Virus record (IMG/VR): IMGVR_UViG_3300012979_000003
Span: 36,254-100,253 of that record
Reading direction: 5' to 3' (one strand)
Length of the DNA stretch: 64,000 bases
DNA from: a virus
Lineage: Duplodnaviria; Caudoviricetes
Position 1 is the first letter of the stretch. Each line of letters begins with the position of its first letter. Below, one piece after another: positions 45,832 through 62,926 of this stretch. The position numbers and the translations under genes are program-made. Below the pieces are notes generated by a model. That model searched no databases. It saw only the letters and a list, made by a program, of their open reading frames with translations, and was not told where the DNA came from.

Positions 45832-45904
45832 AGCCTGTGCTGGATTTGAACCAAACTCTTTCTTCAAATAATGAAGTTGTGCTAACCTTATAACACTAAC
45901 AGGC
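45832..45904 (-). ncRNA. tRNA-like element with non-canonical anticodon arm
   Basis: Acceptor GCCUGU/ACAGGC, D-arm UGUU..AGCA, T-arm UGG-UUCAAAU-CCA; anticodon arm CUUCA-UUAUU-UGAAG is atypical. Confidence 0.65.
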
Positions 45905-46030
45905 AAAATGACCCAATGGCAGTTCTTATGGGATGCCATTGGGTTCTTGACTGGATTAATCCACCAGCCGTTTTATAGTGCAGATGAGCGCGACGGGGGC
46001 ATCTCATGTACACTCTGTTAAACTCTAACG

Positions 46031-46651
46031 TTAAAACGGCAAATCGTTAGGGTTTGTAGTTGCTTCATTCTTTACATCCGCAAAGGGATCTGCGTTTGCT
46101 ACAGGAGTTTCAGCATCAGCTACTACGGGACGAGTGAACTGGTCAATACCAAGTTCTGTGATGCTGCTTGTCTTACCTTCAGGGAGTTCCTGAGGTTCAA
46201 TAAAGGTATACTTTGCATATGCAGGTAAAGCGGTATATCCTTTTCGATTGTATACAACTTTTACGCGGAGCTTCTTTGTCTTATCTACAGTACTCAGTTT
46301 ATAAGCCACCCAATCAATGAATGACTTGAACGTGTCACCTTCAAATACAGCATCTTCTTCTGCATAGAAGCATGAAATAATCTGCATGATTCGTGATACA
46401 ATGTTGTCAGCCTTAGCTTCCAACTTTTCTTGAGTATCTGTGGGACCACCGAGGGTGGGTTCCCATTCAGTGTGAGTCAACGTTGCACTGTCTTTCTCAA
46501 AGACAAATTCGATGAAGTTGTTTCCATTAGGTGACTTATCAATGCGAACGCTCTTAAAGGTTACGTTCTCATGAATACCTGCGGGAATGTACTTAATATC
46601 TTTCTTCTCAATATTTTGTTTTGCTCTACTTGTACTAAACATATTCTTCAA
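46031..46651 (-). CDS. Single-stranded DNA-binding protein (putative)
   Basis: Located in the replication cluster next to the AAA/Sak4-like gene; acidic tail ending NDLPF. Confidence 0.65.
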   Translation of the reverse strand: MKNMFSTSRAKQNIEKKDIKYIPAGIHENVTFKSVRIDKSPNGNNFIEFVFEKDSATLTHTEWEPTLGGPTDTQEKLEAKADNIVSRIMQIISCFYAEEDAVFEGDTFKSFIDWVAYKLSTVDKTKKLRVKVVYNRKGYTALPAYAKYTFIEPQELPEGKTSSITELGIDQFTRPVVADAETPVANADPFADVKNEATTNPNDLPF

Positions 46652-46658
46652 ATTTTAA

Positions 46659-48235
46659 TTATTCTGGTAAATAAACACGATCCCAATAAACATTAATGTT
46701 GTTGGAATCATCACTCTCTGCAATCACTAAGTTTTTGCCACGTAAATGTGGTGCACGTGCTTCACGAACTGAATTATCTCCACCTTCAAATGAAATGTGA
46801 GTTTCGTTCTTTTTTCGGTAAACGTAACCTACTGCATCTGCTTCTCCACAGATGATATTAGCTAGTTTACCTACAAGGTCTAACGACATTTCTGATAACT
46901 CTTCTCCATCTTTGTTTATCATCTTGTCTTTCAAGTGACCAATTAAAATGAAGTTATCACAGAGATCTCGGAACATGTCGATAATCTTACGTACTGCTTG
47001 TTGTAGATATAAATATCCACTACCGTTTGGTAACGTGCGTACGTCTGTACCTTGATAAGACTTTCCCATTGGTGTTGCTTTGTCATTATCTTCTATATAA
47101 ACCGCAACGTTTATATACGTTCTCTTATGAACTGCTGCATGTCACCATGCAGATGAGACTATATCATCTCCTTTTACCTTATGCGGCAGTCAGGAGTTCC
47201 CCATTTCCATCACCATTGGCTTGTGATGTACTCTCTTTCGAGATAGTCGTTGAACCTTCAACATAAAACTTTTCATAGATTTTTTTAATTTTTTCCATGA
47301 ACACATTAATTGGATATTTGTTTTTCATACGATTGCAAATAAAACAGCATGGTACACAATTTTCTTTTGTGTAATGTTTTGTGGAATCCAACCTGTCTAT
47401 TCCATTGGCGTGTGGTTCTCCACAATAGTGACAGGGTTTATGTAGAAATTCTTTAATTTCGTCATCTGTTAATTCCATTTGGTAGTTTCTACCTTTCGCG
47501 TTACTTTTTATAGAACTAATTCTGTATTTATCCGGTCGATCTGCTTTATATTTTTTGTCAGCTATTTCTTTTTGTAGATCGTTGATGCAGTTGGTGCATG
47601 CTTTTGGCATATATTTTCCTTTTCCGAATCTATCTGCTCTAACAACTGTTATGTTTCCGCAACGGTTGCATCTGCATTTAAAGTAACTTCTCTTTATTTG
47701 TTTTGTTTTATCGTATTCTTCGTGATCCAATTCTAATATGGTTAATACTCCATGTGTCGTGTTCAAATATTTTTTTAATGTTTCTTGTTTCATGTTGCTT
47801 GGCTTCTGATTGTTTTACCCAAAACTATTTATATAACATATAACGTAGCAATTGGTAAAATGTTCCAGAAGTTAAGGGAATTTTCTGTAAATATTTCTAT
47901 TTACAGCTCCACAGAATTTAGAGTTGTACTGCATACGGCAACGCCATTTCTTCAAGTCTTGAAGCATTATCTATAGTAATATACTTATATGGTTTATTAC
48001 CAGAAGTGTTAATTTCTTCTTTAATCGCATTGGCAATTTCACCAAGATCTTTAACAGATCGTGCTTGTACTGCTAATGCGTCTAAGAATTCAGATCCTCC
48101 TTCTAGGTCAACAATCAAGTTGTTTTCCAACTTTGATACTAATGTTGTTTTACCTGCTTTTGGTTTACCAAACAGGATTAAGAATCGAGGATTCTGAACC
48201 TTAGCTTTTATTTTTTCTTTAGGTAGTACTATCAT
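46659..48235 (-). CDS. AAA_24/Sak4-like ATPase, two exons (48235-47920, 47083-46659), 246 aa spliced
   Basis: Walker A GKPKAGKT and ITIDN in exon 1. Splicing joins CTC-T|AC-AAA to give LPYAVQLYKATPMGKSY in frame. Confidence 0.85.
47179..47793 (-). CDS. Intron-encoded HNH homing endonuclease
   Basis: CRCNRCG zinc motif, CHYCG, NGIDRLDSTKHYTKENCVPCCFICNRMK. Confidence 0.85.
   Translation of the reverse strand: MKQETLKKYLNTTHGVLTILELDHEEYDKTKQIKRSYFKCRCNRCGNITVVRADRFGKGKYMPKACTNCINDLQKEIADKKYKADRPDKYRISSIKSNAKGRNYQMELTDDEIKEFLHKPCHYCGEPHANGIDRLDSTKHYTKENCVPCCFICNRMKNKYPINVFMEKIKKIYEKFYVEGSTTISKESTSQANGDGNGELLTAA
47841..47866 (-). promoter_or_regulatory. Putative ECF-type promoter GGAAC-N16-CGTTA for intron HNH
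   Basis: GGAAC-attttaccaattgcta-CGTTATA lies ~50 nt upstream of the HNH ATG. Confidence 0.6.
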
Positions 48236-48260
48236 GTTTATTAAGTTAGTACTTCGCTAA

Positions 48261-48300
48261 AAATTTGATAGAATCTGACAGAGTTTGCAATAATCTGAGA
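48261..48300. repeat. Four 10-bp-period TYTG repeats
   Basis: aaatttgata/gaatctgaca/gagtttgcaa/taatctgaga in the intergenic spacer. Confidence 0.55.
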
Positions 48301-48311
48301 ATATGCAAAGT

Positions 48312-48851
48312 TTAGTCTGTAATAATGTTGTTAATCTGAACAATCACGTTGATGATAATCTGCTTATCTTCACCGCTCAGTGAATCGAAATAGTCGCGAT
48401 TATTGCGACGAGGGATGATGTGGTTACCAATCTGAGTAAAGTTCTGATAAATTCGTACGGGCATACCGAAGTACTTGAAGTCGTAACCCTTATCAAGGCG
48501 AATCTTCTTTTCTTCAGCATATTCCTCAAGACGTTCGATGGCTGCATCGAAGTCGTTATACAAATTAATCTTCGGTGTATTGTTTACAATCATTGCCTTC
48601 TCACCACGGATAATGTCCCAGAAACTGCGACGCTTACGCTTTGCAGCCACGTCTACGAAGGGTGAATCACCAATAGTGATAAAATCACCAGGACCGGCAT
48701 ATTGTACGCTACTGCGCTTGTTAAGCGGAGTATCTACACCGTCTACTGACAGGAAGGGGAACCGTGTCAAAATGTTCTTTACGAGGATATCCTTCAAAAT
48801 ACCCTTATTGTCTTGTTCTTTACTAGGAAGTTCAATATAAAAACGTTTCAT
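48312..48851 (-). CDS. Hypothetical protein
   Basis: 179-aa ORF in the operon. Confidence 0.75.
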   Translation of the reverse strand: MKRFYIELPSKEQDNKGILKDILVKNILTRFPFLSVDGVDTPLNKRSSVQYAGPGDFITIGDSPFVDVAAKRKRRSFWDIIRGEKAMIVNNTPKINLYNDFDAAIERLEEYAEEKKIRLDKGYDFKYFGMPVRIYQNFTQIGNHIIPRRNNRDYFDSLSGEDKQIIINVIVQINNIITD

Positions 48852-48857
48852 ATAATT

Positions 48858-49811
48858 TCAGCCTTTAAAATTTGTTAGTACTACTTTTTCCTGTTGCACT
48901 GCGCTTTCTATCAAGTTGCCATATTTCAATTCGTTGTCGAATGAAAGTATGCAAGCTTCTCCAGCATCTCGTACTTTTAAGAAGTGCAAATAGACTTTAT
49001 CTTTAACAGGTAGTCTTTGTGGACCATATATGCTCAAATTGAGCAGTTCTGGCCTACTTAGTACTACTATAAAGTCACTTGCTTGATAAATCGCATCAGA
49101 TGCAGACAAATCACTTCTCATTGGGTAATGAGTAGATGGGTTGTTGATCCTCTCAGGTTGTTCAATGTTTCGATTCATCTGTGAAATCTGTATTATACTT
49201 GTCTTGGGAAGTTTTTTCTTCCGTATAAACATTTTCTGTAAATCAACAATGATACTTCTTTCACTACCTTCGCCTTCTACAAGTAGAGTATGGTCTAATA
49301 TTACTATCAACCATTTGTCTTTAGCGATACTGTTATGAAAGTAGTCTATAGTCTTCTCAATGCCTTCTACTGTACTTGGAGTATCAACATAGTATATTTG
49401 ATACTTTTTGATCTTTTCAGCTTCTGCTTTTACTTTCGCAAAGTCTTCTTCTGATAGATCTTCTTCAGCACTGTAGAGTTCCGAAGTTGTACGGCGTAAC
49501 TTATTACTAAGCTTTCTTCCGATTTGTCGATAACTCAACATTTCGAAAGAGAAATTGAGTATAACTATTTCCTGATCGGGATTTAAATCAATTAGATTGT
49601 TTTCAAGAGTGTTAACGAATGCAGATTTACCTGAGCCAGAAGTTCCGGCTATAGTAAAGATCATATTAGGTTCAATACCTCCACAACAAACTTTATTAAA
49701 TTTGTTCCATCCTGTCTTTAACGGGACGATGTTGTGTTCTTTACGATCTTTAATGTACTTTACTGACTCATTTGCTACTTCTGCAATAGACTTAAAAGAC
49801 AGTGTTTCCAT
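48858..49811 (-). CDS. dnaB: DnaB-like replicative helicase
   Basis: AGTSGSGKS, FSFEM, ILDH, SQMNR, SDLSASDAIYQASD, KVRD motifs. Confidence 0.9.
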   Translation of the reverse strand: METLSFKSIAEVANESVKYIKDRKEHNIVPLKTGWNKFNKVCCGGIEPNMIFTIAGTSGSGKSAFVNTLENNLIDLNPDQEIVILNFSFEMLSYRQIGRKLSNKLRRTTSELYSAEEDLSEEDFAKVKAEAEKIKKYQIYYVDTPSTVEGIEKTIDYFHNSIAKDKWLIVILDHTLLVEGEGSERSIIVDLQKMFIRKKKLPKTSIIQISQMNRNIEQPERINNPSTHYPMRSDLSASDAIYQASDFIVVLSRPELLNLSIYGPQRLPVKDKVYLHFLKVRDAGEACILSFDNELKYGNLIESAVQQEKVVLTNFKG

Positions 49812-50361
49812 AGGTTGGCTCTACATTTTGTGGTTTGTTAAAATTCATTTCATCTTCGATTGCTTCCCATTCTCTATTGGTTATCCACTTCCACATAGTT
49901 TTGAAATATCCTAGTTTGCCTGTCATGGCTTTCTGTGATACTTCGTACTTTAGACACTCCAATAAGTGTTCATGCATTGCTCTAGACTTACCTACAACCT
50001 TGTTGTATTCTTTCTTACACTTATTTACGTTTGCACGTAAAAAGCCTTTGGTTCCATCTGGGCGTGTTACATAAACTGGAAAGACTTCATAAAACTCATC
50101 AAAGAATGTTACTTCTGACGTAGTCATTTCGACTAGTCGTTTTGATGGTTTGTATGAAATACTGTCGTCAGAAACGTCAACTACGACGTAATCTCGATGA
50201 ACTAATTCTTGTATTTCGTCCTCACTAATTCGGCTGAGAAATTCGTGAATGTCTTGATGATTTGATTTGTTGTCATTCAATACAAGAGTTAGGAAAACTA
50301 ATTGATTGATTGTTAAGTCTTCAATTAACTTGAAGATTGCTGTATCCAATTCTAATATCAT
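49792..50361 (-). CDS. Hypothetical protein, possible replication initiator/helicase loader
   Basis: Between PolB and DnaB; FDEFYEVFP motif. Confidence 0.6.
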   Translation of the reverse strand: MILELDTAIFKLIEDLTINQLVFLTLVLNDNKSNHQDIHEFLSRISEDEIQELVHRDYVVVDVSDDSISYKPSKRLVEMTTSEVTFFDEFYEVFPVYVTRPDGTKGFLRANVNKCKKEYNKVVGKSRAMHEHLLECLKYEVSQKAMTGKLGYFKTMWKWITNREWEAIEDEMNFNKPQNVEPTYGNTVF

Positions 50362-50413
50362 AACAGTATAACTTTTATGAAGTCTAGTATTTGATACAAT
50401 TTGGCAAGCTCTG

Positions 50414-52270
50414 TTAAAATAGACTTAGTTGTTTATTCTTTAATTGAGCAATAATCTTGTTTGCTTCTGCAATGTAATACCGATAGTTTATTTTAGGGTC
50501 TTCTTTGAGGTCGTCAAAGTTATTTAACAAAGTTACACCAGATGCAGTAAGCATGTTCTGATATTTCTTTTCCCCGTTATCTTCAATCTTCCATTTGTAT
50601 AGGAAGTAACCATCGGTTGATGCATAAAATCGGTTGGTTCGTTGTTGTTTGATGTCGTTATATTCTACTGTCCACTGTTTACCTGTTTTCTCAGACATTA
50701 AGAAATCTTTAATGTCTGTACAGTTTTTAATGTAATCCTGAGGTTTAACGCCTTCTGTGAAATACTTTATAACAGCTTTCGGTATTATTTTAGGAGTTAA
50801 TCCTTTACCTAACACAACATCTGTAATAAAACAACCTTTTTCTTTTATCTTACCATTTTCATATACACCAAAATAGTCATTGATTGCTAATTGGTAGAAT
50901 GCCTTAAATCTGTCTTCTTCTAGCACAAGACCGGTAAGTTCTTGCCAGTCTTTGAATATCGTTTGTATTTTAGGGTAGATATCCTTTTTACACTTAAAGA
51001 AGACACCATCAGTGTTAATCTGAATGATTTGAGCACCTACTTTAATTAACTTTTCAGTTAACATAAGTAATAGCAATTGACCATTTATACGAATACCCAT
51101 TACAGCATAAGGGTCATAACACCAGCTGTATTCATTTTGTAGATTACCTGATAATCCGTTCAATGCGTACTTTAAAGTTTCATTTGTCACATCATCTTTG
51201 GCTTTCTTTGCAGCTAATCTTCGCACTCTAATATCCTCGTATGTTATCTTGAATTCTGGACCCAAGTGTTTAGGGTAGAAGTCAAAATTTAATAACATAC
51301 TTGGATATAGAGATGCTACATCAGCGTCTATGAGTAATTCGTCCTCTGCAGGAATTATAATTTCTGGTTCGTTTATTGAATGAATACCACCGACACCAAC
51401 TGAGTACGTCAGGTTTTGCATAAGAAATTTCTTCTCATATCCTTTTCGTCCCGGTGATACCACTAGTGATTTCATTTCTTCCAGCAATTCTTGCAAAATT
51501 GGGGTGTCGTATTTTATGAAAGGTAAAATGACTTTGTCCAAGATTATAGTATCTGCTGGGGAGCGTAAGTTTTTTAATACGTTCCAGCTAATACCTGTTT
51601 TACGCATATATTCTTCTGCAAGAATCTGCATACCTACATTGACTTTGTCTACGCTTAGACAGTCAATTTTGTAGATATTTCCAATATCAATACGTAATTT
51701 GAGTAAGTCTTCACATCTCTTTAGAAGCTCATATGTTGACATTACGTCATTTACGTTGTAGGCAATCATTTCATCAATCTCATTTAGAGCTAATGGTGCT
51801 TGCCAGTCGACATTGAATTCTTGGACATTTTTATACATCATTGTTACTTGCATTTCTTTGAGAGATACTCGCAATGCTTTACTATACAACATTGTGAGTA
51901 AATCTACTGTTAGGAAGTTTTTTGTATACTTCCATTTCTTCCACAGGTGTAAGTTATCATCTTCTTTTTCAGTGATTACTTTAGACATGTTGAAGAGTGA
52001 CGTACATATTTTGTCGTACGTATAGTTAGAATTGGAGAAGTAATCAATACAATAGTTTACGATAGGGTTATCATAGTGAATATTGTTGTATCCGACAAAG
52101 TATCCATCAACTGTTAAAAAGAAAATACACATTTCTTCTATTGTATTTCTACGCTGGGAACATTCGAATTTATATAAATCGTTTGTTTCAGTGTTTAATA
52201 TACAGCAATGGAATACGTTTTTGAATACCTCAATATCGTATACGTAAGCTACTTTATCTTTTATTCTCAT
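50414..52270 (-). CDS. DNA polymerase, family B
   Basis: Exo motifs YDIE and GYNNIHYD; pol motifs DADVASLYPS, KYALNGLSG, INTDG. Start moved to MRIKDK because the upstream extension is a tRNA-like RNA. Confidence 0.9.
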   Translation of the reverse strand: MRIKDKVAYVYDIEVFKNVFHCCILNTETNDLYKFECSQRRNTIEEMCIFFLTVDGYFVGYNNIHYDNPIVNYCIDYFSNSNYTYDKICTSLFNMSKVITEKEDDNLHLWKKWKYTKNFLTVDLLTMLYSKALRVSLKEMQVTMMYKNVQEFNVDWQAPLALNEIDEMIAYNVNDVMSTYELLKRCEDLLKLRIDIGNIYKIDCLSVDKVNVGMQILAEEYMRKTGISWNVLKNLRSPADTIILDKVILPFIKYDTPILQELLEEMKSLVVSPGRKGYEKKFLMQNLTYSVGVGGIHSINEPEIIIPAEDELLIDADVASLYPSMLLNFDFYPKHLGPEFKITYEDIRVRRLAAKKAKDDVTNETLKYALNGLSGNLQNEYSWCYDPYAVMGIRINGQLLLLMLTEKLIKVGAQIIQINTDGVFFKCKKDIYPKIQTIFKDWQELTGLVLEEDRFKAFYQLAINDYFGVYENGKIKEKGCFITDVVLGKGLTPKIIPKAVIKYFTEGVKPQDYIKNCTDIKDFLMSEKTGKQWTVEYNDIKQQRTNRFYASTDGYFLYKWKIEDNGEKKYQNMLTASGVTLLNNFDDLKEDPKINYRYYIAEANKIIAQLKNKQLSLF

Positions 52271-52285
52271 ATTCTTAAGTTTATT

Positions 52286-52333
52286 GTTCCGTTGGGAGAC
52301 TTGAACTCCCTGAAGGCCTAACCTTAACGGTAC
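52286..52333 (-). ncRNA. Minimal tRNA-like element (acceptor + T arm)
   Basis: GUACCGUU/AACGGAAC stem, GGGAG-UUCAAGU-CUCCC T arm, and one small hairpin in place of the D and anticodon arms. Confidence 0.6.
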
Positions 52334-52360
52334 CACTATAAAAAGATGGCTTATTTGTTG

Positions 52361-53074
52361 TTATTTAAACATTTGCTCTTTAAACAATTGAATCGCATTG
52401 TATTTGTCAATTGTTTCTTGGTCGAACCAATAAGGATTCTTTACACAGGGTCCTGAATTAAAACACGTAGGTTTATTGTTGACGCTTAGAGTCAAATGAG
52501 CATATGTTGATGGATACATTATCGATATTAGGTGATTTATAAAAGTTATGACCACATCACGTTTTTTTGTACGTTTGTACAATTTTACGTTGTGTACTGC
52601 ATCTTCAGATACAAATCGCACGATGTCTGCAGTTTCATCGTTGTAGATAACGTCCGCTTTCCTGTTTTTTCTGTTTAAGAAGATGTTTAAACGAACATCT
52701 TTGTCACTTTTTGGTTGTGACGTTGTGTAATTTTGAATCAAACATTTTATACCATACAAGGTCTTCTTGTATAAGTTTAATTCTTTGTCTGTTGTTGGTT
52801 TTGTTTTGTGAGGCAAATAACGTATTTTTTCTAAGTTATCTATTTTGCTCTCTTTCATGTTTTGTCGACGAGCCTTTGCTTCTTCTTTTGTCAAAGAAGC
52901 CAGTTTGCTACGTCTTGTTTTGGTAACTTTCTTTGTAAAGTTTCCTTTGGTCTTTTTGTTTTCAGTCATCGCTCCTTTGGCAATGTCTGTGGTATAATAA
53001 GCAGTTTCAAATTCTGCATGGTCACCGTCTAAGGCAATCCAATTTTGGTTACGGCGTTTAATTCTTGAGTTCAT
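52361..53074 (-). CDS. Hypothetical basic protein
   Basis: 237-aa ORF. Confidence 0.7.
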   Translation of the reverse strand: MNSRIKRRNQNWIALDGDHAEFETAYYTTDIAKGAMTENKKTKGNFTKKVTKTRRSKLASLTKEEAKARRQNMKESKIDNLEKIRYLPHKTKPTTDKELNLYKKTLYGIKCLIQNYTTSQPKSDKDVRLNIFLNRKNRKADVIYNDETADIVRFVSEDAVHNVKLYKRTKKRDVVITFINHLISIMYPSTYAHLTLSVNNKPTCFNSGPCVKNPYWFDQETIDKYNAIQLFKEQMFK

Positions 53075-53100
53075 ATTGATGGGTATTTAAGGTTAGACAA

Positions 53101-53595
53101 TTAGGCTGCTAAACTCATATGTACAGTGTCTTCTGTTACATCTGTATCTTTGTTGAACTCGTCAATCTTGCTACGAAGTTCTGCAATACGCAAATCGATT
53201 TCTCGTGTGCGTGCGTCAATCCATGACTTAGTTAGAACTTCTTTCTTTGCAAGCTTATTTTTGCCTTTCTTTGCTTTCAGAGTAGGATTGATATACTTAA
53301 TCTTACTCAGTTTTGTGCGAATCTCTGTCATTTCACTGAGCAGAAATACTGTGTATTGGTTTACATCCTTATTGATGTCAGACTTCTTGGTAAAACCAAG
53401 GTTAATGTATGCCAATGTAAGCTTAGCCATTGCACGGTCTTCAGCAAGGTTCTGAATAAGGCCATATAAAGCCTTCAAATCATACTTGTGCTCAAAATTC
53501 TTAGGAGCTACGTTAGTTTTTTGGATATAATCCCAATATTTTGACAATTCATTGTCAAGGTCTTTTCTTTTCTTGATATATTCTGTTGCTTTCAT
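53101..53595 (-). CDS. Hypothetical coiled-coil protein
   Basis: 164-aa ORF ending MSLAA. Confidence 0.75.
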   Translation of the reverse strand: MKATEYIKKRKDLDNELSKYWDYIQKTNVAPKNFEHKYDLKALYGLIQNLAEDRAMAKLTLAYINLGFTKKSDINKDVNQYTVFLLSEMTEIRTKLSKIKYINPTLKAKKGKNKLAKKEVLTKSWIDARTREIDLRIAELRSKIDEFNKDTDVTEDTVHMSLAA

Positions 53596-53630
53596 TGATT
53601 TCTATTTTTAGTGATTAATACTTAGTTTGA

Positions 53631-53661
53631 TAAAAAGGTTGACCCAGTTAAGGGCCAACCT
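53631..53661 (-). terminator. Rho-independent terminator
   Basis: AGGUUGGCCC-UUAACU-GGGUCAACCU-UUUUA on the - strand. Confidence 0.65.
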
Positions 53662-53812
53662 GTGCGAGTAGGTTTTCTCTTTTAATGTGTTTCTTTATGC
53701 ATTCAAATGCAGAAATTAACAACACTAATGTGAGTTTACTACATTTACCTAACGGTTTCCCGTCGACAGTGCACTTTGCAGTTCCACCGTCATAGATGAT
53801 TTCGATTTTCAT
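53648..53812 (-). CDS. Small hypothetical protein
   Basis: MKIEIIYDGG start directly after a tRNA-like element. Confidence 0.55.
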   Translation of the reverse strand: MKIEIIYDGGTAKCTVDGKPLGKCSKLTLVLLISAFECIKKHIKRENLLAQVGP

Positions 53813-54672: not shown

Positions 54673-55203
54673 TTATCGGGGCAATTCGTCAACGTAGATT
54701 TGTACTGGAATTGCTCCTCCCCCAAGATCAATGGCTGCCATGCCAGCTGCTCGGGTTCTAATTGTCGAGGATCTTTCTTGTACGGCTTCCTTGTCTTCCG
54801 TCTTTATATACTTAGAGGCATAATAACCTCCTTTGAAACCAAACATATTAGTTGCAAACAATGCATCAACTACATAATCGTAGTCTTTACCTTGAATTGC
54901 TTTTTCGATAATCTCTTCGGATATACCTTTGAAGATCTTATCATTCTTGTTACTTCCGTGTCCGGACATAACGCTGGCTATACGGAATGCTACTTCCATG
55001 AAGGTAATAGTTTTACCATTTCCTCCAAATAGCCAGTTAATGAACCAGTTACGACTACGTTGAATCAATACAGACCCATCATCCTGTATTGTAATAGTCG
55101 GAGCTACCTTCTCGTTATCCAAGAGAAACTCGCGACGAATTGCTTCGTCCTTGAAAAGTGCCAAAAGAAGCACTTTACGAGATTCACTTATCAATGATAC
55201 CAT
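54673..55203 (-). CDS. Hypothetical protein
   Basis: 176-aa ORF. Confidence 0.75.
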   Translation of the reverse strand: MVSLISESRKVLLLALFKDEAIRREFLLDNEKVAPTITIQDDGSVLIQRSRNWFINWLFGGNGKTITFMEVAFRIASVMSGHGSNKNDKIFKGISEEIIEKAIQGKDYDYVVDALFATNMFGFKGGYYASKYIKTEDKEAVQERSSTIRTRAAGMAAIDLGGGAIPVQIYVDELPR

Positions 55204-55210
55204 GCACTAA

Positions 55211-55771
55211 TTAAGGCTTGCGGTCCAATGACTTGTAGTAACGCTCACAGTTGAACTTCTCGTTCTCGTTGATAGTGCGAAGAGCACCGCTCCATTCAAC
55301 AAGCTGCTTGCTGAGGCTATCGATGTCCTCCATAACTTGCTTGTTGTAGGCAGTAACTACGTCTACCAACTCCTTGTAGTCGGTGAAGAAGATGTTTGAA
55401 TCGGGGTTCTTAATTGCTTCCTCAACCTTGTCTGAGGTCGCCTTCTCAAACTTAGGCGCAGTAATCGGGAACTGCAAAGATGCCTTGTGGTTGAACTCTA
55501 CGACAGGCTTGCCGTTTGCGTTGGTCTTGATTTCCATTGAGATAATCTCAACGTCCTCAACATAGTACTTCTTGAACGGGCGTGCAAGACGCGGATGTGT
55601 GTCATTGAGTACCTTTTCGTTGTGGCTCAAGTCCAGGTTATCACTCTTGATCGCAAAGATCTTCTTACCAAAATAGGGAGCAAATGCTTCCAATGAAGCT
55701 CGGTGGGCGTTGATGTCGAAGCCCAAATTATTGTTATTGTTCATAATTATATTCTCTTTTGATTTCGCCAT
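55211..55771 (-). CDS. Hypothetical protein (codon usage suggests high expression)
   Basis: 186-aa ORF with AAG/AAC/UUC/AUC-biased codons. Confidence 0.75.
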   Translation of the reverse strand: MAKSKENIIMNNNNNLGFDINAHRASLEAFAPYFGKKIFAIKSDNLDLSHNEKVLNDTHPRLARPFKKYYVEDVEIISMEIKTNANGKPVVEFNHKASLQFPITAPKFEKATSDKVEEAIKNPDSNIFFTDYKELVDVVTAYNKQVMEDIDSLSKQLVEWSGALRTINENEKFNCERYYKSLDRKP

Positions 55772-57912
55772 TGATTGTACCGACGAATATGTTAATTACT
55801 AAAGTTAAAACTCACTTTTGTTCCTGATATTGGTGTCAAAATAATAAGTGGGGTGTCTTTGTGTAGGTATTATGGCAAGACGGTATATACGGAATTGGTG
55901 AATTCAATCACTACCATTCACAAAGATTATACTAAATGTGTATCTGACAATATCTGAAACGATTTGAAATTGCTAACAAAAGCCAGTCACTTAGGCTTCG
56001 CTTTAAGAAAGCTATGAAAACATGTTAGCGGGAATGACTCAATACGTAGTAATACACAGAATTGTGTATACGGGATCCCAACGGTAGGGATAGCTGCGCC
56101 CATAAGTATTGTAGAATGTTTGTTATCGAGTGTTTCCACACACGGATGCAAGCTTTGATGCTTATTCCTGCATTCTAGGTTTTCCTGCTTTCGAGAGGAG
56201 TCCGGTAGTTATCGTGATACGCACGGTAGGAATTCTATATTTTGATGTCCTACGCACCCTAAATAAAACAGCCCATTGCTTATAGCATGGCCCACTGTTA
56301 CCATTCCTGGATTTGTTGTTTATACAGCGCGAATACTCGGGATTTCCACCCGATCGTCAGATTAACGGCTAATGAGACCGTCCTGTTTCCGATTCAGCGT
56401 TCTTCCTCCTTAACACGTATAGTTGCGGCTATACGCTTTCAGTATGAGAAAAGTGTCTAATGTCAGCGTAACGGTTGGCTGTCGGGGGTGGAGGCTATAC
56501 TACTTTGGAATAATGGCAGTTACAGGTGGGTAACTCCTTCTTTAGTTCATCGTAATACAGTCCATTGGACTTCCCCTATTATTAAGGTTAGTAATGTTAA
56601 CAATCTCTATTTTTTACGTGTAAACCACGGCAATCAGTTAGCTTACTGCTGGCACAGGCGGGAGCGTCTGCAAGGATTCCCACGTGCATCCACATGGCGA
56701 ACCAGTCTACCCGTAACTAGCTATCTGCAGTGGAGTATGCAGACTAGTCATTAAATGCTCGTTTGGTTTCTTTCTTTAGTCACCCAGTGAAAGAGCTGGA
56801 TATTTTACTTTACATTCTGCCTTATATCAGTCGGCATTTGTCAGAAATAGGTTACAGCGCCTTCGACCGCTATTCCCCCACATTCATTTCCTCGTTGCAA
56901 AGCACTCGCGGATTTATAGTCGTACTGTGGGTACTTGACGACTTTACAAAAGTAACTACTTGATTCTAATGCTGCTTCTTGGAGAAACAGGTGGCATTGC
57001 AGCCATTCTTATACTGGACATTGCTACTCAGCCATAAGGCACGCAATTTACTAATTGAGTCAACACAAGCACTCAGTTACAACTCATCAACATGCTTGCT
57101 ATCAATCAACGGAGATATTTCTTCTTTCCCGCATTACGTATGGGTTTGGCACCCAATCCAGGATAACCTATAGTATAAGCATAGCTATAGTTCTTTTGTT
57201 CGACCTTTATATATCGCCTTCATCCGTACAGGTTACTTCAGTTAGCGATAAAACACTATCGAGATATTTTTTGAAGGTTTTGGAGACCTTCGGAGACACG
57301 CTAGTCGGTGTATAAGGATAATTCTCTACATCTTGAATGGTTTTGGAGACCATTCTCCATGCATGAATACGGCTGTTGGCGACTCGTGTAGACAGTATCT
57401 CCTCTCTTGATTTCGCTTATAAACACCTACGGAGGACTGTCGGGTTAGTTGTACATCTATGCCGCGTATATTTGTACATTATCGATACCCTTGCTTTGTT
57501 CATCTAATATACTGTAACTACTACATGTTGGATGCTTAGAGACAGTAAGCACCGCGTGTTTCATCTACTTCGGTATACTTCAACGCGTCTTCAGTAATAA
57601 TAACATCGCCAATTCGGTTCTCATGTTAGTATCACCACGGGTTAAGCACGCTCTCCCGTTTTCTACTTAATTTTTCTGTCAAAAATGCCAATGACATAAG
57701 TAGTTATCATGGTTTATTCAGGGCCTCTAATTGGCTTTCTATTGGAGATAGTTACCTGGTTTCAACCATCATGTATGCATTTTCACATTCTACGACTAGC
57801 TAAGTCCCAGTAAAATGTTGTAGCATTTACGTTGCCCTACGACTTTTTGCGTGTTGAATAAAGATACTAATTTAAGTATAGTGCGTACAAATGCACTATA
57901 CTTAATATGTCT
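55772..57912 (-). ncRNA. Large (~2.1 kb) structured non-coding region, candidate giant ncRNA or ncRNA cluster
   Basis: No credible ORF on the coding strand; dense inverted repeats throughout. Confidence 0.6.
57872..57905. other. Long perfect hairpin at the boundary of the non-coding region
   Basis: TTAAGTATAGTGC / GCACTATACTTAA, 13 bp. Confidence 0.7.
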
Positions 57913-58239
57913 TTAATCAATAGGCACGCTTGCTATAGATTTTGCAAGGTGTTCCTCTACAGGAATAAATGGAGATTTCATTTGTAGGGGAATACGTCGC
58001 ACGGCCTTAGCTGCCCATAATTCATCTCTAACCGGAGTTATGATGTTGACAGTACGTACAAGTGTATCTGTCTTCATGACAATCCTTTTATCGATGATTG
58101 TGTTAGTAACTGTGTCCCGTATAAATATAGGAACTGTTTCAGTCTCTGCCTTAGCGGTACTGGATAATGTCGACTGTAATCCAATAAATCCGCCGATTGC
58201 CATCACAATGATGAAGCTAAATAATTTTGTTTTTCTCAT
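57913..58239 (-). CDS. Hypothetical membrane/secreted protein
   Basis: N-terminal signal/TM segment MRKTKLFSFIIVMAIGGFIGL. Confidence 0.7.
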   Translation of the reverse strand: MRKTKLFSFIIVMAIGGFIGLQSTLSSTAKAETETVPIFIRDTVTNTIIDKRIVMKTDTLVRTVNIITPVRDELWAAKAVRRIPLQMKSPFIPVEEHLAKSIASVPID

Positions 58240-58250
58240 CTTTTGATAAG

Positions 58251-60011
58251 TTATTTGCTGTACGAACTCATGTCGGCATACTTGGCAATACGCTCAAGGT
58301 TGCTGTTATAGAACGGGGCAAGCTTCTTTACGATGTCCTTAGCGATGGACTCTGAGTTACTGTACTGCTTTGAGATTGTATCGAGGATCAATGATCCGTT
58401 AATGTTGCAGTCAGTAAGGTATTTCAGCTTACGTTCCAGCTTAGTTCCATTACAGATCGCATCGATTACTGTACTGGGAACATTTGCGAGTTGTTCGTAC
58501 CCTTGTTCGGTTTGGTATTTGTCAATTTCTTCTTCGGTGAACTTTACGTTTGACTTTCCTGCAGCAAGGTTCTTTCCTGCAATGTAGCGCAAGTGGCTTG
58601 CATACAGTACTTTGATGATATTTGATACCTCTTCGTCAGTATAGTTCGTGAAGGTATAGTTGGGACCAAGAATTGCATGAGCGGTCAACAAGTTGTTATA
58701 GGTATTGGTAATACCCCACACTCTACCACTGGCACCGGCTAATGAAAGCGGACGTGCTTCATTCTTGTACAACTTTTCAAACATAACTGCCAGAATCTGA
58801 GAAGGTGAGTCTTTCTCAAGACCAAATGCCTTTCTTGCCCATTCGATTCCGTTGTAGATGTTCACAGTCATCTGATCCTTACCTTCCTTCTTTGTCTGCT
58901 TGGTACCGGGTTGCGACAAAATGGCGCGAAGGATCTTCAGCTTTTCTTCAAGTGGAAGTGCTGCATCAGGTTCAGGGAACGTCTTCTCTTCACTCTTTGC
59001 TACTTCCTTTGCAACTTCCTCTACGGCAGTTACATCAGCGTCAATTGACTCTTTTACATCTTCAGGGATGTCGAATTCGAGACGCATCTGACCGTCATTA
59101 CCACGAGGCAATGCGCGTGCAGTTACGCCCCAACAGTCTTCCAACAATGTTACAAGTACAGGACCAACTTTGTCGTCAAGTCTTACGCCAAGGATTTCCT
59201 CACCTTCCTTCATAATCTGATTATGCAGGAACAGGCAATTCATTGCCATACCTTCGTTGAAAATCTTTGCGTATGCTGCACGTTGCTCTGCTGGAATATC
59301 TGCAGTCTTATCGAGATACTCTGACTTAATCATACCCAAGAACTCAACCTGCTTGTCGGCAGACATTCGGTCTCCCTTCAAGGTTTCGTGGATGGCTGCA
59401 GAGATGTTGCGAATCTTGGTTTGTTTCGGGTCAATGATCTCTGCCGTCTTGGTAGTTTCAACTTTCTTTGAATCCATCGGCTTCTTGGTTTCTTCAGTCT
59501 TAGTTTCAGTTTTTGTCTCTTCGACAACAACTGCTTCCTCGATGTTAGCATTTTTGTCAACTTTCTTTTCAGGTTCTTTTTCAGACTCCTTCTTGGCTTC
59601 CTTCTTAGCCTCTTTAGCAGCTTTCTTTTCTGCCTTCTTGGCTTCATATTCAGCCTTCTGACGAGCCTTCTTTTCTTCCTTAGTCTCCTTCTTTGTTTCT
59701 TTTTCAGGAGCCTTGTCGGCAGGCTTGTCTTCGGGGCTAGTGCCAATGCCAAGTTGGTGATCTACGGCAGCTTCTGCGGGTTTTTCCTGTTCAGCAGGTT
59801 TTTCTGCGGGAGCTGTCTCCTCAGTCTTTGTGTTATCTACTTGAGCCTGAGCTTCAGCTTTAGCAGCCTCCTCATTCTCTTTCTTTGCGATTTCTTCAGA
59901 GCTGAGTGTTTCTGTGCTCTTAGCAGCCTCAGTAGTTTTTACTGTTGCTTTCTTAGCAGACTTCTGAGCAAGTGTCTGCAATGCTCTTTCTTTATGTTTA
60001 TTCTTTGCCAT
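58251..60011 (-). CDS. Large hypothetical protein with K/E/A-rich disordered N-terminus
   Basis: MAKNKHK start; EAKKAEKKAAKEAKKEAKKE low-complexity region then a globular C-terminal half. Confidence 0.8.
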   Translation of the reverse strand: MAKNKHKERALQTLAQKSAKKATVKTTEAAKSTETLSSEEIAKKENEEAAKAEAQAQVDNTKTEETAPAEKPAEQEKPAEAAVDHQLGIGTSPEDKPADKAPEKETKKETKEEKKARQKAEYEAKKAEKKAAKEAKKEAKKESEKEPEKKVDKNANIEEAVVVEETKTETKTEETKKPMDSKKVETTKTAEIIDPKQTKIRNISAAIHETLKGDRMSADKQVEFLGMIKSEYLDKTADIPAEQRAAYAKIFNEGMAMNCLFLHNQIMKEGEEILGVRLDDKVGPVLVTLLEDCWGVTARALPRGNDGQMRLEFDIPEDVKESIDADVTAVEEVAKEVAKSEEKTFPEPDAALPLEEKLKILRAILSQPGTKQTKKEGKDQMTVNIYNGIEWARKAFGLEKDSPSQILAVMFEKLYKNEARPLSLAGASGRVWGITNTYNNLLTAHAILGPNYTFTNYTDEEVSNIIKVLYASHLRYIAGKNLAAGKSNVKFTEEEIDKYQTEQGYEQLANVPSTVIDAICNGTKLERKLKYLTDCNINGSLILDTISKQYSNSESIAKDIVKKLAPFYNSNLERIAKYADMSSYSK

Positions 60012-60082
60012 TTTGATAATTTTTAAAAGTTTGATACTAGAATTCATAAAACCTAACTAACTCAGTAATACAGATTATAGGT

Positions 60083-60466
60083 TCATGAATCGTTTTGGAT
60101 TTCTGGTTCTAATGGGGGAAGAGCCCTTTCGGTATCAAATGCCACTGTGTCACGTAAGACCTGCTCCTGACCCGTATAATTTGTAAGAACCTCTATAGAG
60201 TCACATTTCGTTTCTCTTTCAAGAGGTTCTTCACTATACGTGGGAGACGCATCTTTTACCATTCGTGCGGCATCCACTACACTAACTCTCTCAGTTGCAA
60301 TCTGATTAAGCAAATACATTGTCTTAACATTAATTGCCCCTGCACCCACAAGAAGACCAATTGTCAACGCGAATGTAAGCCGAGCAAACATTCCACTGTC
60401 CTTGCAGCGTAAAGACGCCACATAGATTGCAAGTACTGCAATTACGAACAATACGTAATAGGTCAT
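60083..60466 (-). CDS. Membrane protein downstream of ECF sigma
   Basis: Two N-terminal hydrophobic helices. Confidence 0.7.
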   Translation of the reverse strand: MTYYVLFVIAVLAIYVASLRCKDSGMFARLTFALTIGLLVGAGAINVKTMYLLNQIATERVSVVDAARMVKDASPTYSEEPLERETKCDSIEVLTNYTGQEQVLRDTVAFDTERALPPLEPEIQNDS

Positions 60467-60482
60467 AATTTGTGAATATTGG

Positions 60483-61034
60483 TTAATTTACTGATTCGTA
60501 CATTTTGCGTAAGTGCTGTCTTGCTTTATTGAGGTCACTTTTTACGGTGATTTCATTAGAGCCAAGCAACTCAGCAATTTGTTTATACGATTTACCTTCG
60601 ATGCGGTAAGTAAGTACTTCTCTATACTTCTTTTTCATTCTTGGAATTAGTCCTAATACTATTTTGAGTTTTTCTGATGCTAACATGGCTTCTTCTGGGC
60701 CATTATCAGTTCCTCTAACCTGGATGAATGAATTATCGTCATCGATATAAGCATTGAGATTTTCTTTCTTAGTTCTCCTAATATAGTCTATTGCACTATT
60801 GGTAGCTATTGTTTTTAGCCACATTTTCAGAGAAATGTTATCAACGAAGGTTTCTCGTTTGTACCATGCTTTAGTAAACACGATAGATGTGATGTCGTCA
60901 GCAGCATCTTTGTTTTTTACGACAAAAAATGCTGCATTGTAGACGATATCTTTGTATTTGTGATAGAGCGTATTGAACGCTTTTTCACTGCCTTGTTTTA
61001 CTTGCTCTATTAAAGTTTTTTCATTATCTTCCAT
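60483..61034 (-). CDS. ECF-type sigma-70 family RNA polymerase sigma factor
   Basis: AFNTLYHKY, DAADDITSIVFTKAW, LKMWLKTIATNSAIDYIRR (region 2); GKSYKQIAELLGSNEITVKSDLNKARQHL (region 4). Confidence 0.9.
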   Translation of the reverse strand: MEDNEKTLIEQVKQGSEKAFNTLYHKYKDIVYNAAFFVVKNKDAADDITSIVFTKAWYKRETFVDNISLKMWLKTIATNSAIDYIRRTKKENLNAYIDDDNSFIQVRGTDNGPEEAMLASEKLKIVLGLIPRMKKKYREVLTYRIEGKSYKQIAELLGSNEITVKSDLNKARQHLRKMYESVN

Positions 61035-61051
61035 ATCACAAGTATTTATAG

Positions 61052-61083
61052 TACACAGAGAGGGAGTCGAACCCTCTCCATGT
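61052..61083 (-). ncRNA. tRNA minihelix (12-bp stem capped by T-loop)
   Basis: ACAUGGAGAGGG-UUCGACU-CCCUCUCUGUGU-A, between the upstream stop codon and the sigma start. Confidence 0.6.
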
Positions 61084-61502
61084 TAGAACGGTAATTTAAC
61101 TATTTCTGACAGATAATAATCAATTACTGCCCGTTTCCTTGACCAATATATTTCGTTTACCCAGAATTCCCAATCAATTTTATCGGTTTCTTTTATTGGT
61201 AACGCTTTTAATTTGGTAGTAAATATTCGTTTCTTTACCAGTTCTGTAGTACAATCCGTCTTATTTTTCCAAAGAAGGTTGTTTATCATCAGTTGGAAAA
61301 CATTTTTGTTTAACCAACTCGCCATTTGTTGAACTTCTTCTACACAAGCAAGACCATTTTCATACCATGCTGTAGGAATTACATTCATATCATTGTAGAC
61401 TGATGTAAATTCTACTACATTTTTTCCGTTGACTTTGATATCATTTACGAAATAATGTTCGGTATTTTGCATTCTGCTGTTGAGTTTCATAAACAAATCC
61501 AT
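61083..61502 (-). CDS. Hypothetical protein
   Basis: 139-aa ORF. Confidence 0.7.
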   Translation of the reverse strand: MDLFMKLNSRMQNTEHYFVNDIKVNGKNVVEFTSVYNDMNVIPTAWYENGLACVEEVQQMASWLNKNVFQLMINNLLWKNKTDCTTELVKKRIFTTKLKALPIKETDKIDWEFWVNEIYWSRKRAVIDYYLSEIVKLPF

Positions 61503-61503
61503 A

Positions 61504-61674
61504 TCATCCGATATTTAAATATTGTCGTACTTCCTCAATAATGCTGTTATGCATACCAATTGGTTGCTTTTCTTTGAGTAATAAATACTCTCTGAATCTT
61601 TGGTCGTTGCCTGAAGTGGCCAACATTTCCCTATAAACTTTTGATAGTCTTGGGATTTTACTTTTCTTGCTCAT
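61504..61674 (-). CDS. Small hypothetical protein (56 aa; not in ORF track)
   Basis: MSKKSKIPRLSKVYREML...YLNIG-TGA fills the gap between neighbours. Confidence 0.55.
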   Translation of the reverse strand: MSKKSKIPRLSKVYREMLATSGNDQRFREYLLLKEKQPIGMHNSIIEEVRQYLNIG

Positions 61675-61882
61675 CTTTGTACAAATTGTTTGCCAGAGTG
61701 ATTGCAGTAGTTACATCTACATACTGTGACATTTTCTCTTGAAACTCAAACTTGTCTGCGCAAGATGCTTTAACCATCTCTACATACTTTTTACTGTTTT
61801 TGTTTTTAAAGAATGCCCAATTTCTGATTTCTATGCTGAAATCATCTGGAGTTAATTCTTCGATTTTTGTTTTCATCGGCAA
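61658..61882 (-). CDS. Hypothetical protein
   Basis: ORF coupled to its neighbours. Confidence 0.6.
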   Translation of the reverse strand: MPMKTKIEELTPDDFSIEIRNWAFFKNKNSKKYVEMVKASCADKFEFQEKMSQYVDVTTAITLANNLYKDEQEK

Positions 61883-62175
61883 TTGAATTCGTAAGTTTCG
61901 ATTTTTTCAATAATTTGTTTCCAGAACGCTCTAGATTTCTTGGAATTTGGAGCTACTGTGTAAGTTAGGTGATATTTGTAGCGAAGGATATCGTGACATA
62001 CCAACCAAGTTTTACCTGCTTTCCAGTTATTACCACGTTTCTTTTTTGGGATTGCTGCATAAACAGCTTCAATGAAGTCATTCTTGCATTTTTCTTTTAC
62101 AATTACGACTTTCCATGATTCAGGAGTTCTATCCCAAATCAAACCTCTTAATCCTGTTGATGATAGTGTTGCCAT
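61873..62175 (-). CDS. Hypothetical protein
   Basis: 100-aa ORF. Confidence 0.65.
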   Translation of the reverse strand: MATLSSTGLRGLIWDRTPESWKVVIVKEKCKNDFIEAVYAAIPKKKRGNNWKAGKTWLVCHDILRYKYHLTYTVAPNSKKSRAFWKQIIEKIETYEFNCR

Positions 62176-62186
62176 AATGAGTTAAT

Positions 62187-62591
62187 TTAGAGACATTTTA
62201 CTTCAGTTCGATAATCCCGTGTGTCAAAATGCATCGTTACGTTGCAGTGTAAGTTTTTGAGTTCTGCGTAAGCACTAGCGGCACGGGGTTCTGATAGTTT
62301 TAACTCAAACGTTTCGGCATTGAAAACTAAATCTTTTGCTTCTTTGAGTGAACAATCTAGCAACCGTTTTACATACGCTACTATGTTTAATTTTGATGCG
62401 TCTTCCATTGGAGTTACTTTCAGAATATATTCTTTTGATTCTGATTCATTTCCGTTTTGAAACATTGTTTCAATCCACTGGAATTGTTGTTTTTCTGGCA
62501 AAATTGTCAGTGCGTTTACAATATTTTCTATTGAAAGCAAACCTTTACTTTGCAAGCCTAGTACTACTAATTCTAAGATTTCTTTTTTCAT
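62187..62591 (-). CDS. Protein with ribosomal protein L7/L12 C-terminal-like domain
   Basis: SKLNIVAYVKRLLDCSLKEAKDLV matches the bL12 CTD pattern K..VIK.V....GLKEAKDLV. Confidence 0.65.
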   Translation of the reverse strand: MKKEILELVVLGLQSKGLLSIENIVNALTILPEKQQFQWIETMFQNGNESESKEYILKVTPMEDASKLNIVAYVKRLLDCSLKEAKDLVFNAETFELKLSEPRAASAYAELKNLHCNVTMHFDTRDYRTEVKCL

Positions 62592-62602
62592 GCCACATAT
62601 AG

Positions 62603-62821
62603 TTATATTATTTTAGAAAAGTAATAACAGTAACATACAGATGTGTTGAAATTGCGCATCCAATCTGCTCTGGTTAAGGTGTCAGTAACTGGCACACAAC
62701 TCACTAGTAGGTAATCTTTGTACCTATTGCCAATATATTCAGCACTTAATAGGTGCGAACTTAGCACTCGTAGACTGTTTCCATCTTTGGATTTGTCTTC
62801 TTTGATTAATTGATTTTCCAT
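62603..62821 (-). CDS. Hypothetical protein
   Basis: 72-aa ORF downstream of a tRNA-like element. Confidence 0.5.
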   Translation of the reverse strand: MENQLIKEDKSKDGNSLRVLSSHLLSAEYIGNRYKDYLLVSCVPVTDTLTRADWMRNFNTSVCYCYYFSKII

Positions 62822-62851
62822 ATTTTTGATAATTTAGATGGTTATTTACTT

Positions 62852-62926
62852 TGGTGACAACAATTGGATTCGAACCAATAACTCAACTTAGTTGGGTTGT
62901 GATGTTACCATTACATCCATGTTGTC
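62852..62926 (-). tRNA. tRNA-like gene with encoded CCA and non-canonical anticodon arm (identity undetermined)
   Basis: GACAACA/UGUUGUC-A-CCA acceptor, GAUG/CAUC D arm, AUUGG-UUCGAAU-CCAAU T arm; anticodon region CAACCCAACUAAGUUGAGUU does not give a 7-nt U33 loop. Confidence 0.7.

Follow-up and report, generated by a model that had tools for sequence, protein, structure and literature searches.

We analysed a window of 64,000 nucleotides from a virus genome (IMG/VR record IMGVR_UViG_3300012979_000003) in which an original prediction had seen six tRNA-like elements directly upstream of gene starts, and had suggested that they punctuate an early polycistronic transcript. The record is 100,253 bp long, carries an 85-bp terminal repeat and contributes its final 64 kb (bases 36254-100253) to the window. 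By nucleotide matches the genome falls among the crAss-like phages, family Suoliviridae, the nearest named genome being cr6_1 (Bearivirinae), with about 78% identity across the primase-polymerase region. From position 64000 down to about 43000 almost every gene is on the - strand and spacers are short; the boundaries that bear the elements belong to one co-oriented block of early and replication genes. PHROG searches bore out the names given earlier to three of these genes, all on the - strand: DNA primase (44834-45814; PHROG 12622, E 6e-40), DNA polymerase, the PolB of the original prediction (50414-52270; PHROG 1252, E 1e-137), and an RNA polymerase sigma factor (60483-61034; PHROG 1740, E 1e-26). 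A fourth gene encodes a protein of 164 amino acids (aa) in relatives, with its window orthologue at 53101-53595.

All six elements are present on the - strand where they had been placed, each close upstream of an ATG, at distances of 2 to 33 nucleotides (nt) counted from the discriminator, the base after the acceptor stem; we label them A to F, and number as slots 1 to 4 the recurrent gene boundaries described below. Four are solid members of a family, those before the primase, PolB and sigma genes and the one after the coding piece of a transfer-messenger RNA (tmRNA), whereas C and D are weak when taken alone. Element F (62852-62926; slot 1) is a complete tRNA-shaped RNA with a 7-bp acceptor stem, D arm, T arm and encoded CCA, 30-33 nt before the ATG at 62821; the 72-aa open reading frame (ORF) that starts there, 30 nt past the CCA (62603-62821, - strand, from the ORF list), matches no PHROG family. 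Element A (45831-45905; slot 4; fold z -2.66) is a cloverleaf-like structure of 75 nt, 16 nt before the primase ATG at 45814, with one T-stem pair and one acceptor pair mismatched. Element B (52286-52332; slot 3; fold z -2.85), 15 nt before the PolB ATG at 52270, is a 47-nt armless tRNA mimic made of an acceptor stem with six of seven pairs, a small hairpin and a perfect T arm. Element E (61052-61083; fold z -5.4), 17 nt before the sigma ATG at 61034, is a bare acceptor/T-arm minihelix, with a perfect 12-bp helix that includes two G.U pairs and is closed by the loop UUCGACU.

Element C (54412-54480; z -0.53) is a degenerate tRNA-like fold with 4+1 acceptor pairs and four of five T-stem pairs, and is probably this genome's decayed copy of slot 2, the position before the 164-aa gene. 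It lies 26 nt before the ATG at 54385 of a 129-aa ORF (53996-54385, - strand; PHROG 28969, E 4e-5) that has no orthologue among the 80 related loci introduced below. Element D (53815-53958; z -2.45), 2 nt from the ATG at 53812, is of an expanded type of 143 nt, with a 7-bp acceptor-like closing stem, five inner hairpins and a T stem of merely 3 bp, and has no nucleotide homologue in relatives. C and D lie with two small ORFs in a window-specific insert (53636-54672) that relatives do not have. With a Bacteroides-type -7 motif at 54655 on one side and a strong terminator at 53661-53636 on the other, the insert resembles a moron-like, self-contained unit.

Against the Rfam tRNA model (RF00005, gathering cut-off 29 bits), F alone among the six passes the cut-off (43.7 bits); E scores 16.6 bits (E 0.056), the 3' part of D 12.3 bits (E 0.86) and C 9.4 bits (E 5.6), and A and B go unreported at E<=10. 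ARAGORN returned F as tRNA-???, calling no isotype because its anticodon arm has a 4-bp stem and an 8-nt loop; this loop, which can also be drawn with 6 nt, is without U33. At lowered thresholds ARAGORN made 57-63 calls, mostly spurious, and those for A, D and E are of little weight. The claim that none of the elements has a usable anticodon loop is correct for five of them, and in B and E the anticodon arm is absent; A, with a loop of 5 nt or 7 nt, can be read as carrying the anticodon UAU, though with U at position 37. Measured against the geometry of a minimal processing substrate (a 7-bp acceptor stem stacked on a 5-bp T stem with a 7-nt T loop), E and F form 12 of 12 pairs, B 11 and A 10, and the same four fit the fold of the plant-mitochondrial t-elements (T-arm motif GGTTCRANYCC plus acceptor stem), as do the 146 detector matches described below, and C and D match it loosely. 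In a test for 3' RCCA, CCA was found in F only among the window elements.

The phage has two ordinary tRNAs, a CUA suppressor and a Met tRNA, both on the other strand. A seventh element of the same kind lies outside the window, 32 kb before it, on the - strand (G000:C1 4167-4238); it scores 44 bits with the Rfam tRNA model, has a four-base 'tgta' anticodon by ARAGORN in an odd anticodon loop, carries a CAAA trailer as in the family, and is followed by an ATG 24 nt downstream.

Fixed slots for tRNA top-half mimics

To set these elements in a wider frame we used 80 IMG/VR loci retrieved by polymerase alignment (polymerases 54-83% identical to that of the window), each consisting of the polymerase gene plus up to 10 kb per side, 1.55 Mb in total. 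A strict detector, which demands a T loop of the form G-TTCRANY-C, five of five T-stem pairs and an adjoining 7-nt acceptor strand with an upstream partner, gave 146 gene-strand matches against a single one on the opposite strand, and 0-1 in shuffled sequence. None of the 146 matches is inside a long ORF, 126 end 10-29 nt upstream of an ATG, and 101 are not tRNAs by ARAGORN. Among 88 distinct elements, 78 have an ATG within 40 nt, and for 71 of these 78 the spacing is 13-22 nt. Because the detector itself requires an acceptor partner, the acceptor stem was examined by anchoring on the T arm only, which escapes this circularity: the 7 nt directly after the T stem have a perfect 7-bp partner in 67 of 94 distinct T arms, as against 2-11 for control 7-mers shifted by 2-25 nt and 25 at a shift of 1 nt. 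Two looser approaches were discarded, a relaxed detector (225 gene-strand and 154 opposite-strand matches, with 109 in shuffles) and a criterion of six of seven acceptor pairs within 200 nt (background 55-80%), and counts of G.U versus A.C pairs were uninformative as a test for sense-strand RNA structure. Chance is excluded for the family: these are selected mimics of the tRNA top half, not noise. The strand bias, the pairing and the positions thus sustain the view that tRNA top-half mimics stand at gene boundaries of the early/replication block.

After the ORFs of the relatives had been labelled by their window orthologues, elements were counted upstream of each gene. Four slots are conserved: before PolB, before the primase, before the 164-aa gene and directly after the tmRNA coding piece. 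Of 79 relatives, 77 have an element in the 60 nt upstream of PolB, and 57 of 71 have a detector match in the corresponding stretch before the primase; with the strict detector no other orthologous gene has an element upstream, save six cases before the 164-aa gene. By position only, taken as a T-loop motif 30-55 nt before the ATG, occupancy rises to 78 of 79 for PolB and 68 of 71 for the primase. T-stem positions are paired in 98% of cases at the PolB slot, where 1000 shuffles of partners gave a mean of 66% and a maximum of 77%, and in 89% at the primase slot (mean 61%, maximum 75%, again 1000 shuffles), with three to five pair types at most positions. RNAalifold on eight short elements found compensatory changes in five of six T-stem pairs; the MAFFT alignment on which it worked brought only the T arm into register, so that the acceptor stem could not be scored in this way.

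The 164-aa slot is undercounted by the strict detector because many of its loops read TTTGAAT rather than TTC. A conserved leader motif stands 47-62 nt before the ATG of this gene in 72 of 75 relatives. Of 54 distinct sequences, 45 show a perfect 7-bp-closed structure finishing 2-8 nt short of this motif, compared with 13-22 for shifted controls; most of these structures resemble tRNA-Arg(UCU) or are without an anticodon arm. The fourth slot is as regular: in all seven distinct relatives with the conserved 24-nt block of the tmRNA, a tRNA-like element of 43 to about 80 nt starts roughly 3 nt after the block, with a different acceptor sequence in each.

The sigma gene stands apart. None of its 60 orthologues in relatives has an upstream element, so that E is a recent gain, private to this genome. 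As a system of six gene-start elements the original prediction is thus too wide: four slots are conserved, the sigma minihelix is private, and C and D are weak members in a lineage-specific insert. The same elements also occur, unannotated, in cr6_1, cr125_1, cr53_1, cr60_1 and cr113_1, named genomes that represent three subfamilies of Suoliviridae, and the GenBank records examined leave unannotated gaps of 60-300 nt before the primase and PolB.

Turnover within the slots

Only the tRNA top half is constant within a slot. The PolB slot holds an intact-looking tRNA (Arg-UCU, Leu-UAA, Thr or Ile) in 11 of 80 genomes and otherwise forms of 47-59 nt without an anticodon arm, non-tRNAs of 71-92 nt, or expanded forms of 110-123 nt, and the primase slot ranges from forms of 42-43 nt, consisting of acceptor stem, a linker of 10-11 nt and T arm, up to forms of 175 nt. 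In the long forms 60-130 nt of extra hairpins are placed between the 5' strand of the acceptor and the T arm. The 43-nt forms recur in separate lineages with the same architecture and different sequence. Acceptor sequences are nearly wholly different between lineages with the stems still paired, and BLASTN of five window intergenic regions against all loci returned no homologues, so that conservation is in shape only. Relatives have in common the acceptor stem, the T arm and a linker with GG, exactly the part of a tRNA seen by RNase P, RNase Z and the CCA-adding enzyme. In the short linkers GG is found in 16 of 17 cases, against a random mean of 5.8 and with none of 2000 trials as high; this GG would reproduce the elbow formed by the D loop and T loop of a tRNA.

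Element class changes at least 19 times on the polymerase tree at each of the PolB and primase slots, and some of the changes can be followed to the base. Among near-identical loci, at about 9860-9985, L015, L020 and L028 have a 118-nt element with a G3.U70 acceptor stem where L018 and L021 have a 72-nt tRNA-Arg(UCU); the flanks are about 99% identical, and the exchange is bounded precisely by the first acceptor base and the discriminator. L045 differs from L043 by a clean deletion of 23 nt that has taken away the anticodon region and left the acceptor stem and T arm, within flanks that are 98-100% identical. Such exact swapping of tRNA and mimic at one slot offers a direct view of a tRNA gene becoming a structural signal. 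Simple pseudogenes would show intact tRNAs at these sites with uniform decay; intact-looking tRNAs are indeed there in some relatives (those in 11 of 80 PolB slots), but the decay is uneven, sparing the top half where the anticodon and D arms have gone or been replaced, a pattern that speaks for function rather than mere pseudogenes.

The sequences that follow the elements are also constrained. After the discriminator the trailer reads C(T/A)AA, with C at +1 in 67 of 78 distinct elements, A at +3 in 71 and CTA, CAA or TAA in 70; a CCA trailer is found only in F and in one relative. The leader from there to the ATG is nearly free of G and is A-rich at -11 to -13, and a G-poor leader is the expectation for Bacteroidota hosts.

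The tmRNA junction and other surroundings

The coding piece of the tmRNA (62927-63071, - strand) was identified by homology to the permuted tmRNA that ARAGORN finds in cr125_1. Its tag, GKTFVTDYTCIAA followed by a stop, is encoded by the ORF 63009-62968 (- strand), its 5' acceptor strand starts at 63071, and its conserved 24-nt block (62953-62930) ends 3 nt before element F, in agreement with the observation that the element abuts the tmRNA piece. F could be taken for the tRNA-like domain of the tmRNA itself. This is ruled out, since the true acceptor, with G3.U70, is formed by 63071-63065 pairing with 63194-63188 (acceptor piece 3' strand 63204-63187), and F closes on itself with C3-G70. At low threshold ARAGORN also offers a one-piece tmRNA of 249 nt, in which a distal strand, GGCAACG at 63094-63100, pairs with the 3' acceptor strand of F (62856-62862); this model has G2.U71 and C3-G70 and no G3.U70. 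The coding piece of a two-piece tmRNA must finish at a defined 3' end, and a cut by RNase P at the first base of F would set that end, as it would in every relative examined; this junction is the most concrete hint of what an element does.

Upstream of element A, a 10-bp hairpin followed by a T-rich run (45912-45943, - strand) ends 6 nt before the element, and could be a leaky terminator or a 3' hairpin that protects the upstream message after cleavage. The same layout is seen in cr6_1, cr60_1, cr113_1, L012, L015 and L092. A strong hairpin lies upstream of 17-26% of distinct sites, against 7.5% of control 45-mers, an enrichment that is modest and not universal. The slot-2 element is preceded by two to four hairpins (54490-54610 in the window) whose stems are unrelated and whose loops have a motif in common; it reads GATGTATGAA in the window, and relatives (for example L014 8458-8640, L015 8130-8260, L012 8175-8320) have TGGTTGGGT or GATGGGT. 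Proteins may bind at this loop motif. GATGTAT occurs 15 times in the window, against 12.7 expected, and is not enriched there.

Neither a candidate promoter motif of the extracytoplasmic function (ECF) type nor the Bacteroides -7 motif was found directly upstream of A, B, E or F, and a sigma-70 scan gave background levels. The phage encodes no RNase Z, and no RNA-processing enzyme was found among ten neighbouring ORFs, so any cutting would be done by host enzymes.

Host processing as a candidate function

We read the elements as phage equivalents of t-elements, marks to be cut by host RNase P and RNase Z, a reading that we regard as an even call. Under it, tRNA genes and top-half mimics would be built into the leftward early/replication transcript at fixed gene boundaries. 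Host RNase P would cut at the 5' end of an element and so end the upstream RNA, the tmRNA coding piece included; in a minority of cases, as before element A, the upstream RNA would finish in a stable hairpin. Host RNase Z, or RNase E together with exonucleases, would cut after the discriminator and free the downstream message (for PolB, the primase, the 164-aa protein or the first ORF after the tmRNA) with a G-poor leader of 13-22 nt. The trailer that avoids CCA would leave RNase Z free to act. For cutting, a top half of acceptor stem, T arm and GG-bearing elbow linker would be enough, leaving the rest of the molecule free to be kept as a working tRNA, deleted (42-58 nt) or expanded (110-175 nt). 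Co-transcription, cleavage by the two enzymes and any effect on expression are what we infer here from sequence. Hairpins of acceptor and T arm are sufficient substrates of bacterial RNase P, which also processes pre-tmRNA, phage RNAs and some mRNAs (PMC11143913), and in plant mitochondria tRNAs and non-decoding t-elements with the same T-arm motif mark where RNase P and RNase Z make the ends of mRNAs (PMC1920247).

Several observations weigh against host processing. The two real tRNAs of the phage also have an ATG within 11-21 nt downstream, and the short distance between element and ATG may reflect genome compaction only. Alleles turn over very fast, faster than a simple mark for cleavage would call for, which hints that the released RNA has a function. 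No base bias that would point to RNase P was seen at position -1. In the closest relative, L012, the PolB slot (9931-9985) keeps a 7-bp acceptor stem and two hairpins and has lost the T-loop consensus, its loop being of 5 nt. The tightly packed polymerase and primase genes of the cultured phage crAss001 have no such elements upstream, so that the arrangement is not general to Crassvirales.

The t-elements themselves, proposed and partly shown to direct the RNase P and RNase Z cuts that make mRNA ends (Hanic-Joyce 1990; Forner et al. 2007, PMC1920247), are likewise non-decoding tRNA-like folds that keep the T-arm motif beside mRNA coding regions, in roles also taken by true tRNAs. The phage elements differ in that their transcript ends are predicted from sequence, and in that a bacterial virus would rely on the RNA-based RNase P of its host. 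About 80 genomes hold the phage slots at fixed, syntenic places where tRNA and mimic are swapped exactly, the forms go down to 32-43 nt, and one of them ends a tmRNA piece. Element E, element B and the relatives of 42-43 nt have the same architecture as the RNase P model substrates of McClain, Guerrier-Takada and Altman (1987), synthetic molecules of acceptor stem and T-stem-loop with a 3' CCA (reviewed in PMC11143913). The natural phage elements differ from these in carrying C(T/A)AA in place of CCA.

In the mitochondrial tRNA punctuation attributed to Ojala et al. in 1981, tRNAs between the cistrons of a polycistronic transcript reportedly act as cleavage signals; the phage elements, in contrast, stand at four to six boundaries among about 30 genes and most no longer decode. 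tRNAs are co-transcribed with a protein gene in the E. coli thrU-tyrU-glyT-thrT-tufB unit, and in crAss001 (Steigviridae) the small ORFs Gp5-Gp9 are embedded among a tRNA array, but all of these are working tRNAs, whereas the phage slots can keep the processing half alone. mascRNA at MALAT1 and the TMERs of MHV68 are tRNA mimics that are not aminoacylated and whose RNase P or RNase Z handles end or release the adjacent RNA. The TMERs are a viral case of such handles and in that role would be like the phage elements, which differ in origin and setting, the two known cases being unrelated, nuclear and eukaryotic, with Pol III promoters in the TMERs. The YrlA type of bacterial Y RNA, said to have been described by Chen et al. 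in 2014, reportedly has a tRNA-like module of acceptor, T and D arms in which a large foreign domain replaces the anticodon arm. The phage forms of 110-175 nt share this expanded layout; they differ in standing at gene starts and not beside rsr, and an identity of the window's elements with YrlA-type Y RNA is unsupported, given the lack of any Rfam Y-RNA match at E<=10 in 44000-64000 and of a TROVE/Ro60 domain in the genome. In crAss001 itself (L097, MH675552) two unannotated tRNA-like RNAs of 139-144 nt with large inserts (96203-96341 and 96453-96596, - strand) lie in a 900-nt gap adjoining the TROVE/Ro60 gene Gp96, and may be YrlA-like Y RNAs of a phage; another top-half mimic, of 48 nt, is at 99499-99546.

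Other functions were weighed against the same evidence. Less probable, in our judgement, is that the released elements are themselves the product, as trans-acting small RNAs scaffolded on a tRNA: decoys or sponges for enzymes or toxins that bind tRNA ends or elbows, or carriers of a payload seated at the former anticodon arm, with the tRNA shape serving excision and stability. The replacement of types among near-identical genomes, by exact swaps and many class changes, does resemble an arms-race or accessory locus, the long forms have 60-130 nt of additional hairpins to offer, the seventh element has its odd loop in the place of the anticodon loop, and the large crAss001 RNAs adjoin a Ro60/TROVE gene. 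However, forms of 32 nt and 42-47 nt are too short for a payload, those without an anticodon loop could not decoy anticodon nucleases, action in trans does not need four gene boundaries held constant across nearly all relatives, and the phage has neither a TROVE gene nor a Y-RNA match. A more inclusive proposal, to which we likewise give a minor share of belief, is that the slots are tRNA-shaped cassettes in which the top half is a universal excision handle and the interior an exchangeable payload, be it a working anticodon arm, nothing or foreign hairpins. Such slots would be obligatory in Suoliviridae before PolB, the primase and a third gene and behind the tmRNA. Phages would then trade small RNAs, such as tRNAs, decoys or RNAs that bind proteins, by exact swapping, with the same cut maturing the neighbouring mRNA or tmRNA. 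The slots would form a type of accessory-RNA locus new to phages, and a naturally occurring parallel to tRNA-gRNA arrays and to the 'tRNA scaffold' used in the laboratory.

That the elements stay uncleaved, as 5'-leader structures that shield the mRNA from 5'-end-dependent decay or provide an operator or standby site for translation of PolB and the primase, seems improbable. T4 gp43 and gp32 repress themselves through structures in their mRNA leaders, and the tight spacing to the ATG (13-22 nt in 71 of 78), the G-poor leader with its A-rich stretch at -11 to -13, and the persistence of the L012 helix without the T-loop consensus would all suit such a role; but a generic stabiliser or operator would not require a conserved T-loop sequence, the 7+5-bp geometry and a GG linker, real tRNAs, certainly excised, occupy the same slots, and F comes after a non-coding RNA that needs a 3' end. 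Neutral decay of tRNA genes left lying between other genes is far less credible still. Intact tRNAs in the same slots of some relatives, the fresh 23-nt deletion in L045 and the degenerate state of C and D in the window are what it would produce, and yet decay is non-uniform, with stems kept by compensatory change while sequence turned over among lineages whose PolB is about 54-83% identical to that of the window, 43-nt forms of one architecture and unlike sequences persist in separate lineages, and 77 of 79 PolB slots are occupied in compact genomes. Least probable of all, to the point of being negligible, is that all six elements are working if unusual decoding tRNAs: F is above the Rfam cut-off with its CCA encoded and A can be drawn with anticodon UAU, but B, E and the relatives of 42-58 nt have no anticodon arm, the 8-nt (or 6-nt) loop of F has no U33, and A to E are below any tRNA threshold.

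If the elements are cut as proposed, one of the most abundant groups of human-gut phages would use the tRNA-processing enzymes of its hosts to cut an early message and to finish a two-piece tmRNA; our literature searches turned up no account of such elements in phages. Host processing would also explain the 'pseudo' and 'undetermined' tRNAs that tRNA-finders give in crAss-like genomes and the unannotated gaps before the primase and PolB in GenBank records, and it suggests a rule for annotation, namely that an acceptor stem with a T arm should be sought at 13-22 nt from a downstream ATG. The elements of 32-47 nt would be compact natural parts for multi-gene constructs in Bacteroides.

Some further features of the region were seen in passing. 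Beyond the tmRNA, a group I intron (63828-64000, - strand; Rfam 54.6 bits), the sole match at Rfam gathering thresholds, spans the genome end, and an ORF resembling HNH/endonuclease VII (63116-63880, + strand) is antisense to it. A 134-aa ORF (62187-62591, - strand) has a sub-threshold match to the C-terminal domain of ribosomal L7/L12 (23.2 against a cut-off of 25.9 bits), and in cr125_1 a small ORF between the tmRNA and the sigma gene carries a 'ribosomal protein-like' annotation. Between two conserved genes, about 2.1 kb (55772-57912) is without a - strand ORF of at least 60 codons; cr6_1 (L002 22449-24530) and relatives such as L011 (5383-7438) and L015 (4841-6999) have a corresponding gap of about 2 kb.

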